From an uncultured archaeon (GTDB lineage Archaea; Asgardarchaeota; Thorarchaeia; Thorarchaeales; Thorarchaeaceae): DNA of 64,000 nucleotides. Positions 3,133 to 18,157 of this stretch are shown one piece after another. How positions within the stretch are numbered: position 1 is the first letter of the stretch; each line of letters starts with the position of its first letter. The notes beneath the pieces were generated by a model. The model was not told the origin of the DNA, searched no databases, and saw only the letters and a list, made by a program, of their open reading frames with translations. Both the position numbers and the translations under genes were made by a program. The stretch is taken from positions 46,470 to 110,469 of the forward strand of contig CAYWJO010000007.1 in the NCBI GenBank assembly GCA_964458565.1, read 5' to 3'.

Positions 3133-3514
3133 TACTTCTTTTATCATTGATATATTGAGAGGAAATAAAGAAGCGAAAAAGCTGCAAGAAAGATATACTG
3201 CTACTAATCAGAGTACCGTTATTTCTACGATTTCATTATATGAGCTCTTTATAGGAGTATCAAAAGCTGAATTTCCTAATGAAGAAGAAGAAAAAATTAA
3301 CAAATTACTTAATCGACTCTTAACAACTGAATTTGATGAGATGAGTGCGAAAGAAGCAGGAAGCATATATGTTAATTTGAAGCATCGTGGAGAACTGATA
3401 GGTTCTATTGATATTCTTCTTGCGGGTATAGCAAAATCAAGTGGAATTCCAATAATAACCCGTAATGATGACCATTTCAAGAGGATTCAAGGGCTTGATG
3501 TAATTACGTATTAA
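3119..3514 (+). CDS. vapC: PIN-domain (VapC) ribonuclease toxin
   Basis: MILADTSFIID...ISLYEL...IDILLAGIA...ITRNDDHF; acidic PIN active-site residues present. Confidence 0.9.
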   Translation: MILADTSFIIDILRGNKEAKKLQERYTATNQSTVISTISLYELFIGVSKAEFPNEEEEKINKLLNRLLTTEFDEMSAKEAGSIYVNLKHRGELIGSIDILLAGIAKSSGIPIITRNDDHFKRIQGLDVITY

Positions 3515-13761: not shown

Positions 13762-14682
13762 ATGACTACCAAGATGCGCTCGTTTCATTGGAAGGATGAC
13801 TTTGAATTAGTAAAGTCCTTTCTAATTGAGACATTTGAGTTGACTCCGTACCACAACTGGATTCCTTCAAGACTCGAAAATGTAAGATTTGGTCCTTGTG
13901 GGCCCGAATACCAAGATGAAGAGGACGAATATATCAAAATTTGGGAGGAAATTACAGATTTAGGTACAAAGATAATAGCTGTATCCTATATGAAACCATC
14001 ACTGGAATGTTGGATTCATACACATCCTGATTACAAGCACGTTGAGAGAGAGATCATTCTCTGGACTGAGAATCATGCAAAAGAGATGAAACCCGATGCA
14101 GGTGAACGAAAAATCAGCTTCATCACGCGTGACATAGATGAGAAGCGCGTTTCACTATTGAACGAAATGGGTTATCAAGAGATTGAGCTATATGGAGACT
14201 TACAAGTACGCCCTACTGATTTACCTGCTCCTGATTATACAGTGCCTGATGGATTCTCGATCACACACGCTCTCATGGAGCAAGATTTTGAGAAATACAC
14301 AGAAGTACAAGGATCTGTCTTTCCACACTGCAAAAATATGACTAAGAAGTTGCTGATGCATTATGCTTCAGCTTCGTTCTACAACGCAGAACTTGATATT
14401 GTAGCTGTAGCTCCAGATGGCAGGTTTGCTGCATTCTGTACAGTGCGAATAGATCCCGTAAGCAAAATCGCTGAACTAGAACCCGTTGGTACAAATCCTG
14501 AGTTCAGGAAATTGGGCCTTGCGAGAGCTGTGGTACTAGAGGGACTACATCGTGTTAAGAAATACAATCCTTCCGCGATATGCATACCTGGTGCTGCAGC
14601 GACTGAGGGGGCGCGGAATCTCTACAAATCAGTTGGTTTCCAAATAATCGGTGGCGAATACCTCTGGAATAAGACGATTTAG
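13762..14682 (+). CDS. GNAT acetyltransferase (tandem GNAT)
   Basis: EPVGTNPEFRKLGLARA...LYKSVGF. Confidence 0.85.
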   Translation: MTTKMRSFHWKDDFELVKSFLIETFELTPYHNWIPSRLENVRFGPCGPEYQDEEDEYIKIWEEITDLGTKIIAVSYMKPSLECWIHTHPDYKHVEREIILWTENHAKEMKPDAGERKISFITRDIDEKRVSLLNEMGYQEIELYGDLQVRPTDLPAPDYTVPDGFSITHALMEQDFEKYTEVQGSVFPHCKNMTKKLLMHYASASFYNAELDIVAVAPDGRFAAFCTVRIDPVSKIAELEPVGTNPEFRKLGLARAVVLEGLHRVKKYNPSAICIPGAAATEGARNLYKSVGFQIIGGEYLWNKTI

Positions 14683-14844: not shown

Positions 14845-14950
14845 GGGCCCGTGGCATAGCCTGGTGAAATCGACCACGGTCATTTCGGGTTTTTATTGCG
14901 CCGCTCTGATAAGGCGGATGTCGGGTGTTCAAATCACCCCGGGCCCACCA
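14845..14950 (+). tRNA. tRNA-Ile(GAT) with a D-loop intron (19/20, 14865-14892), CCA encoded
   Basis: GGGCCCG/CGGGCCC acceptor stem, CCGCT-CT-GAT-AA-GGCGG anticodon arm, clean BHB motif. Confidence 0.92.
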
Positions 14951-15017
14951 CTTTCTATTGAATTGAACCCAATCCTTTTTCACAAAGTACAACTCATGTT
15001 ATTTGCTGTTGTTTGCT

Positions 15018-15863
15018 ATGACAAAGTCTAACAATTTACCAGTAGTCATTGATATTAGCACACGTCTAACAATGGTTGGTTTTGCAGGAGAAGTAGCTCC
15101 ACGTTTCGTTTGGCCCACTGTTGTTGGATATTCAATAGATCATAGTATGATAGATAGTGATTCCTCAGTTCCTTACAAGATCGGCAAGTATGCATTAGAC
15201 TCGTTATCCCCTATGCTAGTCTATCCGTTAAAGGCTGGAATCATCGAAGATTGGGATGCAATTGAGGCTATCTTGGCATTTACTTTCAAATCACTTGAAA
15301 TCAAATCTTCTGAGAGTAAAGTTTTGATAACAGAATCAATATCTTCTCCCCCTGAAACTCACCAACATCTGATGCAATTGATGTTTCATAAATTCGGTGT
15401 GAGTCATCTCTACGTGACACTTCGACAGGTACTCGCTCTATATGCTGTCCGGAAAGGATCAGGTGTTGTCATCGATTTCGAGCCAGACTATGCATTAATC
15501 GTACCAATATTCGAAGGTCTTGCCATTCCACATGTAAAAGAAATCCTGAATCTGCCGGTCATAACGGGATTTGAGCTTTCGTTTCTTGCAGAACGATTAA
15601 TAGCTGCAGTTGAGAATACAAATCCAGACATCTACGATGATTTATACAGCAACATTGTACTTACGGGTAGTTCTACAACAACACCTCAATTCAGAGAGAG
15701 CCTTGAGAAAGAGATTGCTGAACGGATAGCCTCGGATAGAAACTTCTCAATAATTGATATTCCAGAAAAGCTCTACATGGCTTGGATTGGAGGGAGCAGG
15801 TTAGCAAATGTATCATCATTCAATGAGGTATGGATGAGTCGTACTGAATTCACACAGAAATGA
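15018..15863 (+). CDS. Divergent short actin-family protein
   Basis: VGFAGEVAPRFVWPTVVG, YPLKAGIIEDWDAIEAI, VLITE, VPIFEGLAIPH, LYSNIVLTG, AWIGGS. Confidence 0.85.
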   Translation: MTKSNNLPVVIDISTRLTMVGFAGEVAPRFVWPTVVGYSIDHSMIDSDSSVPYKIGKYALDSLSPMLVYPLKAGIIEDWDAIEAILAFTFKSLEIKSSESKVLITESISSPPETHQHLMQLMFHKFGVSHLYVTLRQVLALYAVRKGSGVVIDFEPDYALIVPIFEGLAIPHVKEILNLPVITGFELSFLAERLIAAVENTNPDIYDDLYSNIVLTGSSTTTPQFRESLEKEIAERIASDRNFSIIDIPEKLYMAWIGGSRLANVSSFNEVWMSRTEFTQK

Positions 15864-15917
15864 CCTGATCGACCGCAGTAGCAACAACTTGCATTGAATT
15901 CCATCTCCTATGGGATT

Positions 15918-18044
15918 CTAGAACATACCACTCAACCACTGGTGAATATGCGCAATAACAGGAAGGAAGAGTGTAGCAGTCAGGGAAATCACGACAAGCA
16001 AAGTATTGATTGATGGGCCTGCAGTGTCTTTGAATGGGTCGCCCACCATATCTCCACGTACTGAGTTCCGGTGTATTTGATCATATCGTGGGTGGTCATG
16101 GTCATACTCAGGAGACTCAATCATCTTCTTTGTATTATCCCAAGCCCCTCCAGCATTACTCATCAATAGGGCCATGATAAAGCCGACCAAGACTGCACCA
16201 CCAAGATATCCACCAAGCGCTTCAAGCCCCAAGATTGAACCAGTTAAAATTGTAACACCTATTACGATGATAGTAGATGGCATGAGTTCTCTTATAGCGC
16301 CAGATGTTGCTATTTCAATACATTTGTCATAATCTGGTTTTGAGGTTCCTTCAAGAATACCAGGATCTACGCGGAACTGTCTACGAATCTCTTCAATCAT
16401 TCGTCCTGCATTACGATCAACACCAAGAATGAGCATCGCAGTAAATGTAATTGGCACTAACGCTCCGATGAATGCACCCGCCAAGATGAATGGATCTGCT
16501 ATATTGACAATAATCTCTTCTCCAATGAGCATCTCCGCTGCTTCAACAAATGCTGCAAATAAGGCAAGAACGGATATAGCTGCAGACCCAATAGCAAATC
16601 CCTTTGTGATTGCCTTAGCCGTATTACCTGCTGCATCTAATTTATCACAAGCTATAATGGCTTCTTCTGAAGCATTCGATTGTTCAATAATACCTCTCGC
16701 GTTATCAACAATAGGTCCATAGCTATCAGAGCTCATGGTAAGTCCATTTGTTGCCAGGAGTCCAACTGCAGCAATTGCTACCGCATAAATTCCCCCCATC
16801 CAACCTCCAAGTCCCAGAGATGTTGTTGTCGAACCGAGGATGAATGATGCCACAAGTGCTACAATAACTCCAATTACTGAAGGTACGGCACTGAGAAGAC
16901 CGTATGAATATCCTGACAGTATGAGGTTCGCTGTGCTCTTCTCAGCATTTTCTACCATATTCCTTACTGGTTGAAATCCGAAGAGACCTTTATCATTTGT
17001 AAAGACATCAGAGGTGAATCCTATAAACACACCAGCAAGTAGTCCAAAGATTGCAGAGGCTGCAATTACAATATCAATTCCAAGAATGAGAATTACAGCT
17101 ACAACCAATACACCAAAGAGAATAGTTGTTATGTAAGTGCCTCTGTTAAGGGCTGGACCAGGATCATCCTGTTCATTAGGTCTTACCAAATAAACTCCAA
17201 TCACTGATGCGATGGTACCTAATGCTGCTATTACTAGAGGCAGGAGTCCAAAGGCGTATGGTAATGCAAATGTTGCATCAAGTCCTGCTCCTAGAAGGGC
17301 AGCAGCCAGAATTGCGGCGACATTGCTATCGAAGATGTCTGCACCTGTTCCAGCAACATCTCCCACGTTGTCGCCAACAGCGTCTGCAATTGCCGCAGGA
17401 TTTCTCGGGTCATCCTCTGGAATGTGCTGCTCGATTTTACCAACAATGTCTGCTGACATATCCGCAGTTTTGGTAAAGATTCCTCCACCTGCTTTTGCAA
17501 ACAGCGCCACAGTACTCGCGCCAAATGAAAAGCCTGTAATCATCTCCCATAGGAATGGGGCCGCAATTCCTGGAAATATCACGAACCACATCAAGTAAAG
17601 AGCTGATAATCCAACAAGAGCAATGCCTGCTATCATCAGCCCCATTACCGAACCCGATCTAAACGCTATCTTGAATGCAGGACCAAGCCCTCCTTCTGCG
17701 GCTGCAGCTGCTGTTCGTCGATTCGCTTGTGTTGCCACTGCCAGACCTATATATCCCGCTCCCATACTAGCAAAGGATCCTATGATGTATGAGATTGCAA
17801 TGGGTATTCCATAGTCAACAAAGACAATTGCAATGACAACTGCTAGGAACAGAGTAAAGAATGTAAGTATACGATATTGTATCTTAATGAAAGAGTCAGC
17901 TCCATCTTGTATCAACCGACTGACTTCATGCATTCTCTTGTCACCTTCATCCGCTCTCATAACTACGCGATATGTGTATAGAGCTACAAGGATGGCAAGT
18001 AGACCTGATAAAAGCGAAATGGATAGAAATAGAAGATCTGACAT
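15918..18044 (-). CDS. hppA: Membrane-bound H+-translocating pyrophosphatase, K+-independent type
   Basis: GGGIFTKTAD, EDDPRNPA, DNVGD, GNTAKA (Lys indicates K+-independent), GDPFKDTAGPS. Confidence 0.93.
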   Translation of the reverse strand: MSDLLFLSISLLSGLLAILVALYTYRVVMRADEGDKRMHEVSRLIQDGADSFIKIQYRILTFFTLFLAVVIAIVFVDYGIPIAISYIIGSFASMGAGYIGLAVATQANRRTAAAAAEGGLGPAFKIAFRSGSVMGLMIAGIALVGLSALYLMWFVIFPGIAAPFLWEMITGFSFGASTVALFAKAGGGIFTKTADMSADIVGKIEQHIPEDDPRNPAAIADAVGDNVGDVAGTGADIFDSNVAAILAAALLGAGLDATFALPYAFGLLPLVIAALGTIASVIGVYLVRPNEQDDPGPALNRGTYITTILFGVLVVAVILILGIDIVIAASAIFGLLAGVFIGFTSDVFTNDKGLFGFQPVRNMVENAEKSTANLILSGYSYGLLSAVPSVIGVIVALVASFILGSTTTSLGLGGWMGGIYAVAIAAVGLLATNGLTMSSDSYGPIVDNARGIIEQSNASEEAIIACDKLDAAGNTAKAITKGFAIGSAAISVLALFAAFVEAAEMLIGEEIIVNIADPFILAGAFIGALVPITFTAMLILGVDRNAGRMIEEIRRQFRVDPGILEGTSKPDYDKCIEIATSGAIRELMPSTIIVIGVTILTGSILGLEALGGYLGGAVLVGFIMALLMSNAGGAWDNTKKMIESPEYDHDHPRYDQIHRNSVRGDMVGDPFKDTAGPSINTLLVVISLTATLFLPVIAHIHQWLSGMF

Positions 18045-18157
18045 TGCGGGCTCCTGTTGAGGATTTTCAAACCATATTATAGACATTGCTATGCATCGGC
18101 TAATTACAAGCCGGACCATTTGGTATGCCCAACTTCAATGAATTGTAGTACGGATAT

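Follow-up and report, generated by a model that had tools for sequence, protein, structure and literature searches.

A three-subdomain actin with a rewritten nucleotide pocket in Thorarchaeota

The 64,000-nucleotide window analyzed for this report, from contig CAYWJO010000007.1 of an uncultured archaeon of the Thorarchaeaceae, encodes a 281-residue protein (P0001, positions 15018-15863 of the forward strand) that keeps the fold of actin subdomains 1-3, has lost the body of subdomain 4, and carries in its nucleotide pocket a set of replacements that are shared by its relatives. We refer to these proteins as "mini-actins". The ORF is real, and the fold, the deletion, the monophyly of the family, the purifying selection that acts on it, its pocket signature and its rarity are the established features of the mini-actin. 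Loss of a subdomain is already known from AlfA and dead pockets are known from Arp7 and Arp9; neither the family nor the combination of the two in an Asgard actin paralogue was found described in our literature search, from which subscription papers were mostly excluded.

As the preliminary description of this DNA had read from the letters, the ORF encodes an actin homologue of about 281 residues. It matches the Pfam Actin model PF00022 at 7e-56 (190 bits, cut-off 27) in two pieces, model positions 6-167 and 306-400, and PDB actins likewise align to it as two blocks. Structure prediction and superposition, proposed there as a check, return a well-formed three-subdomain actin fold. The AlphaFold2 model (pLDDT 90.8, pTM 0.88), which rests on a 143-sequence alignment that includes full-length actins, superposes on actin with a TM score of 0.9, a Z of 32.7 and an rmsd of 1.7 Å across 261 residues, and places a strand at 175-177 that leads through the plug loop into a helix at 186-199; a model made from the mini-actin sequences alone is weak (pLDDT 64). 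The four-subdomain layout of lokiactin and conventional actin is absent. P0001 is an actin-family protein, an actin-related protein (ARP) in the broad sense, and not a lokiactin, a member of AlfA or a syringactin.

The gap in P0001 relative to full-length actins is always 83 residues in eukaryotic numbering, and is placed at actin 176-258 or 181-263 depending on the alignment, because the segment EILNL fits either flank; measured against the lokiactin of Thorarchaeota, the loss amounts to 82 codons. Subdomain 4 corresponds to actin 181-269, and what is lost is its body, with R210, K213 and E214 falling within the deleted stretch, and what is retained is the hydrophobic plug (about 264-272, including G268 and E270). 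The deletion of subdomain 4 that had been claimed at the outset therefore stands, but not its proposed extent of 87 residues (181-267). The same junction is common to at least 12 clusters with 40-67% identity to P0001. An assembly artefact, a concern raised in the preliminary description, is ruled out by this recurrence in independent assemblies and by contigs that span the junction in three DNA runs and in one RNA run: a single contig of run X4 covers 14894-15929 with zero differences, and contigs of X5 and X6 (DNA) and X7 (RNA) cross the junction near 15540. The X7 contig over the gene has a depth of 2, with DNA carry-over possible, and is a weak hint of mini-actin transcription.

Table 1. 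Coordinates of the mini-actin gene, its motifs and its upstream neighbors in the window
Feature	Positions	Strand	Description	Basis
tRNA-Ile(GAT)	14845-14950	+	anticodon 14908-14910; upstream neighbor also in L004, L042 and L043, further off in L045	Rfam 3' part, comparison
D-arm insert	14866-14893	+	28 nt, probable tRNA intron, borders approximate; none in the L004 and L045 tRNAs	comparison
Upstream element	14971-14988	+	AA-nnn-TTTTTC-n-C-n-AAGT at a fixed distance to the ATG	conserved in six loci
Mini-actin ORF P0001	15018-15863	+	subdomains 1-3 and plug; subdomain-4 body gone	ORF call, Pfam, PDB matches, AlphaFold2
P1 loop	15051-15074	+	D12-M19 (actin D11-K18): N12I, G15R, K18M	alignment
Catalytic position	15423-15425	+	R136 at actin Q137; invariant in 12 of 12 members	alignment
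P2 loop	15474-15491	+	D153-Y158 (actin D154-V159): G156E, D157P, G158D, V159Y	alignment
Deletion junction	15531-15575	+	H172 to E186: strand 175-177, then plug with G184/E186 (actin G268/E270)	alignments, AlphaFold2
Adenosine motif	15666-15683	+	G217-T222 (actin G301-Y306): G302S, M305T, Y/F306T	alignment
Connect-2	15771-15797	+	L252-S260: K336L fixed; S338L and V339P in the family, M/A there in P0001	alignment
TGA stop	15861-15863	+	Gly codon in closest relatives; tail lost; same letters in contigs of two runs	comparison

Searches recovered eight further clusters of 264-290 residues, two more that were found among the 50% representatives, and a fragment, all with the same junction; the metagenome scans contributed one fragment. 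All clusters that can be attributed are from Thorarchaeota, and the family amounts to only about 10 independent sequences. The preliminary description had left it to phylogeny to decide whether the deletion defines a conserved clade, and it does, since the mini-actins form one clade in all three trees (support 100/99-100). In the tree without long branches this clade is sister to the Thorarchaeota actins (99/100), and Thorarchaeota lokiactins are also the proteins with the highest identity to mini-actins (40-41%); with long branches included, support for an origin from lokiactin is 47/89, or the clade joins the bacterial short actins instead, a placement that was flagged by the program. The AU test does not reject a shared ancestry with the bacterial short actins (p 0.41), which the differences in deletion borders and the identities nonetheless speak against. 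The favored, though not proven, origin is that a Thorarchaeota lokiactin was duplicated and that the copy then lost 82 codons in frame in a single event. No full-length intermediate with a mini-actin pocket was found. Two other divergent full-length paralogues of Thorarchaeota (368-373 residues; L088 at G321:C366:6840-7940 and L095 on G336:C34) differ from mini-actins in that they do not carry the signature, and the former lies in tandem to lokiactin, about 1 kb behind it.

The host genome also encodes one full-length lokiactin. Among 400 Asgard genomes, the mini-actin gene was found only in the source genome and in G326, which represent different genera, and hence in two of the 86 family genomes; most of the other 84 show lokiactin. 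The gene lies downstream of tRNA-Ile, in the same chromosomal region, in loci L004, L042, L043 and L045. The region is assembled through in L065, L068, L070 and L072 and contains neither gene nor remnant, so that the absence there is real. A second subclade of mini-actins is located elsewhere. The mini-actin would be an accessory gene, of use in some lineages and missing from most. No conserved partner gene was detected across the loci, whose neighbors vary (flavodoxin, AAT, beta-lactamase-like, GNAT, histidine kinase). In the window, the tRNA and mini-actin genes are flanked by a GNAT acetyltransferase (13762-14682) and an H+-pyrophosphatase (15918-18119), which are not dedicated partners because gene content at the site differs among genomes. 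No fused form was seen in the best hits from the 50% representatives. The GC and GC3 of the mini-actin gene are like those of neighboring genes; searches of IMG/VR and of phage records gave no match, and none of the genes called in the loci encodes an integrase, although pattern scans for a viral or mobile origin are insensitive and a negative outcome is not proof.

The mini-actin family is under purifying selection. Pairwise dN/dS is 0.07-0.27 among mini-actins (0.16-0.22 for pairs that include P0001), as compared to 0.02-0.04 for lokiactin and 0.03-0.11 for neighbor genes, all of these being rough values because dS is near saturation. Full-length orthologues beside a decaying copy had been named in the preliminary description as the finding that would overturn it; the relatives instead share the deletion, at dN/dS values below 0.3.

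The P1 loop had been read as DISTR, the P2 loop as DFEPD and the SGG motif as TGS, and the alignments agree in letters and in place. What distinguishes conventional actin at these sites (P1 DxGxG..K, Q137, P2 DxGDG..H and the GG of the adenosine motif) is missing from P0001. Within the family the changes N12I, G15R, K18M, Q137R, G156E, D157P, V159Y, G302S and M305T are fixed or nearly so, as are K at position 72, G158D/E, K/Q336L and S338L, while D11, D154 and G301 are retained and H161 is variable. Over 26 pocket positions, identity to lokiactin is 29% and within-family conservation is 0.80 versus 0.52 overall, a figure to be read with the fact that the pocket is in part buried, so that its residues are conserved in any actin (control value 0.83). 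None of 5000 random position sets was as conserved as the pocket, and these 26 positions hold 13 of the 25 changes that are fixed in, and specific to, the family. The word "degenerate", which had been applied to the phosphate loops, does not describe the most conserved part of the family; judged from its sequence pattern, the pocket is rewritten and not decayed.

In actin, K18 is the phosphate anchor, and Q137 and H161 drive hydrolysis (10.1101/309534; PMC5969521). All three are replaced or variable in mini-actins, and the canonical ATPase cycle would therefore be excluded on established grounds. Canonical Mg-ATP hydrolysis and actin-type filaments are both very unlikely for these proteins, because K18, Q137, H161 and the P2 glycines have been replaced, subdomain 4 is gone and the D-loop has drifted. 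The binding of nucleotide is a separate matter: Arp7 binds ATP without K18, Q137 or a cation, whereas Arp9 is empty (PMC5969521), and AlfA, which has no subdomain 4, still binds ATP, held via F12 and Y255, and polymerizes (10.1101/186080). The earlier suggestion of an ATP-independent, non-polymerizing protein is thus upheld as far as hydrolysis and actin filaments are concerned, but its derivation from the loss of subdomain 4 alone fails in view of AlfA and Arp7. The run E-P-D in the P2 loop argues against the binding of a triphosphate.

Our preferred explanation, to which we give a little less than an even chance, is that mini-actins are lineage-specific, hydrolysis-dead pseudo-ATPases made from actin, which might act as non-cycling binding modules by way of a remodeled cleft and an uncovered face. 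A duplicate of lokiactin would have lost 82 codons in frame and, along with subdomain 4, half of the adenine pocket, most of the inter-strand contacts and part of the long-pitch contacts, after which the cleft between domains I and II would have been rebuilt. R136 might then occupy the position of Mg2+ and Q137, flanked by D12 and D153, both of which are retained, and R16 and K72 might pair with E155 and D157. Such a charge-swapped network, which we infer from the positions of the residues in the sequence, could do the work of Mg-ATP in latching the two domains to each other, or could hold an anionic ligand free of metal. There would be no hydrolysis cycle and the protein would be a stable binding module, with two working surfaces, the cleft and the face that the deletion exposes (GSSTTT, Y158, LYLPW); actin-type filaments would not form, and the barbed-end cleft would probably not be the main site of action. 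It would be the remodeled cleft that selection has maintained; roles as a cap or a decoy appear weaker. We consider it rather unlikely that the Thorarchaeota lokiactin duplicate became a dedicated three-subdomain regulator tied to lokiactin, either as a pointed-end cap or as a metal-free sensor of nucleotides or anions. If it did, mini-actins would be an archaeal parallel to the specialization of eukaryotic ARPs, reached via the deletion of a whole subdomain.

The preliminary description had envisaged a filament cap, a nucleator or a decoy for profilin or gelsolin. As argued there, these roles are not borne out by the surfaces that they need, as defined from residue sets taken from the literature and general knowledge and not computed from a structure. 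Conservation in mini-actins is 0.38 at the cleft that receives the D-loop and 0.43 at the gelsolin/WH2 cleft, below the family average of 0.52, whereas the same clefts are above average across ten control actins with a comparable spread (0.82 and 0.84 versus 0.63). G146 is replaced by R, K or Q in all members, G168 is replaced in all except P0001, R290 has become H and the D-loop has drifted (conservation 0.25); together with the relaxed clefts and the changes at the C-terminus, these differences weaken the cap, nucleator and decoy readings alike. A cap, terminator or template at the pointed end of lokiactin filaments, where the subdomain 1/3 face would dock and, for want of subdomain 4 and a normal D-loop, admit no further subunits, is unlikely but still a serious rival. 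Arp11 of dynactin, a pointed-end cap, is the model for it, and it would suit a protein that probably descends from the host lokiactin and in which the missing part is the accepting face, given that about 87% of inter-strand contacts run between subdomains 3 and 4. The filament contacts H173, G268, E270 and D286 are kept, residues 110-114 plus 173 are 62% identical to lokiactin, and one subclade keeps FNPREN at 110-115. Against this stand the relaxed D-loop pocket (Y143, T148, E167, G168, Y169), long-pitch contacts of subdomain 3 that are only 22% identical to lokiactin, the H at 290, the loss of the C-terminus in several members, and the absence of the gene from nearly all of the family genomes, most of which do have lokiactin. 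A role as decoy or sink for regulators (profilin, gelsolin or WH2-type) is the most improbable of the roles considered: subdomains 1 and 3 are present and the host genome has a two-domain gelsolin, but the profilin site (0.44) is below average as is the gelsolin/WH2 cleft, G146 is altered as above, and five of the 12 members, P0001 among them, have lost the C-terminal portion of the profilin site. On contig C1, about 17 kb separate the gelsolin gene (L078, G000:C1:91967-92482) from that of lokiactin; a profilin search of the same genome gave no match, but neither did its controls, so that it carries no information.

A nucleotide bound in a re-oriented site, as in AlfA, with a non-canonical polymer or oligomer of its own, strikes us as improbable for the mini-actins. 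AlfA is without the same subdomain and yet binds ATP and forms a polymer, Arp7 binds ATP without cation or K18, and F12 and Y255 of AlfA correspond by motif alignment to actin G15 and K336, which are fixed as R16 and L252 in mini-actins. However, the equivalence of Y255 and K336 comes from motif counting only, AlfA retains P1 DIGNFSTK, P2 DAGSKT and the GG adenosine motif, the E-P-D of mini-actins takes away the D157 amide and makes the P2 loop more negative, and subdomain 2, which bears much of the AlfA interfaces, is poorly conserved in mini-actins, as seen for the D-loop. That the family, or at least P0001, is a decaying paralogue in the course of being lost is very improbable. Its patchy distribution and an evolutionary rate about 5-10 times that of lokiactin might be taken for decay, as might two features of P0001 itself, a premature TGA that cuts off about 9 residues found at the C-terminus of its closest relatives and lone deviations at 5 near-invariant columns. 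Yet the frame is open in all members over dS >1, dN/dS stays below 0.3 for every pair with a finite estimate (including those of P0001), the pocket signature is fixed, the upstream element is conserved and the RNA-run contig spans the gene. The tail is shortened or lost in five of the 12 family members, P0001 included, and the P0001 copy is somewhat relaxed.

The known systems that most resemble the mini-actins each differ from them in several ways. Lokiactin (PMC9834061), the probable parent, has about 40% identity over shared columns and the same fold in subdomains 1-3; mini-actins are 82 codons shorter, have replaced the catalytic and phosphate-binding residues, evolve with an omega 5-10 times higher, and are accessory where lokiactin is near-universal. 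The Asgard ARPs are likewise divergent and patchily distributed actin paralogues, among which truncated forms are not mentioned (PMC9834061). AlfA of pLS32 (10.1101/186080; PDB 6bqw, 6f95) has about 275 residues, lacks subdomain IIb (equivalent to actin subdomain 4) and shares with mini-actins the presence of non-actin residues at the positions of G15 and K336. It is, however, a ParM-like actin of bacteria that is only distantly related (14% identity, Z 16.4, versus a Z of 32.7 for actin), with intact phosphate motifs, an ATP-dependent polymer and a role in plasmid segregation, whereas the mini-actin gene is chromosomal and lies beside tRNA-Ile; subdomain 4 was lost independently in the two. 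Arp7 and Arp9 (PMC5969521) are actin paralogues with rewritten, hydrolysis-dead pockets that serve as structural modules, but these and Arp11 keep subdomain 4 and sit in defined complexes, and mini-actins have no known or syntenic partner of this kind. Syringactin (NF040575), on which no paper was found, is also short (a 286-position model) and, from the match coordinates, seems to be missing part of subdomain 4; P0001 scores 58 bits against it, far below the curated cut-off of 300.

Short actins with dead P-loops were also seen outside Thorarchaeota. The cyanobacterium Brasilonema bromeliae encodes a 289-residue eukaryote-like actin (P0158, L081:6001-6870) from which most of subdomain 4 and the plug are missing, next to WD40, AAA_35, Uma2 and HNH genes. 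Those of Leptospiraceae (P0267, from a MAG, L083:6001-6969; P0325, P0337 and P0345), a small family, have 315-322 residues, no subdomain 4 and a hydrophobic, signal-peptide-like N-terminus; they are possibly exported. The bacterial short actins differ from mini-actins in deletion borders and loop sequences, and their identity to eukaryotic actin (37-44%) exceeds that to mini-actins (26-35%). A eukaryote-like ORF, P0190 (L080:921-1916), is without the D-loop region 39-67 and residues 176-258, and its junction is that of the Thorarchaeota family; it is 72% identical to conventional actin and so is probably convergent. The short actins of Brasilonema, Leptospiraceae and the eukaryote-like contig probably arose independently, which suggests a recurring route.

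The mini-actins are a natural and selected minimal actin near the eukaryotic branch (eukaryotic actin is about 35% identical), in which the actin fold tolerates the loss of subdomain 4 plus a complete rewrite of the ATP site. They offer a small, testable case of Asgard actin duplicates becoming ARP-like specialists, and a ready test of whether side chains can substitute for Mg-ATP in stabilizing the fold; their weight is limited by their rarity.

The placement of the gene just downstream of a tRNA-Ile, also noted at the outset, is correct and is shared by three other loci (Table 1). The body of this tRNA-Ile(GAT) gene extends to 14947, with CCA to 14950; Rfam detects its 3' part and ARAGORN misses it. 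Between tRNA and ORF lies the upstream element, whose conservation at a fixed distance in six loci supports the start at 15018 and points to a probable BRE/TATA-type promoter of the mini-actin's own. In L045 the element stays with the mini-actin even though another gene separates the latter from the tRNA; a sigma-70 promoter scan, whose model does not cover archaeal promoters, was at chance level. The inserts of the orthologous tRNA-Ile genes differ in place, being in the D arm in the window, in the T loop in L043 (1-108), and after the anticodon as well as in the T arm in L042 (about 3323-3465), with none in L004 and L045. The lokiactin gene L001 (G000:C1:109551-110684, minus strand) has near its 3' end a 30-nt insert that contains a TAA stop and has canonical bulge-helix-bulge flanks, the removal of which restores the F-Q-K-M-W of other Thorarchaeota actins.
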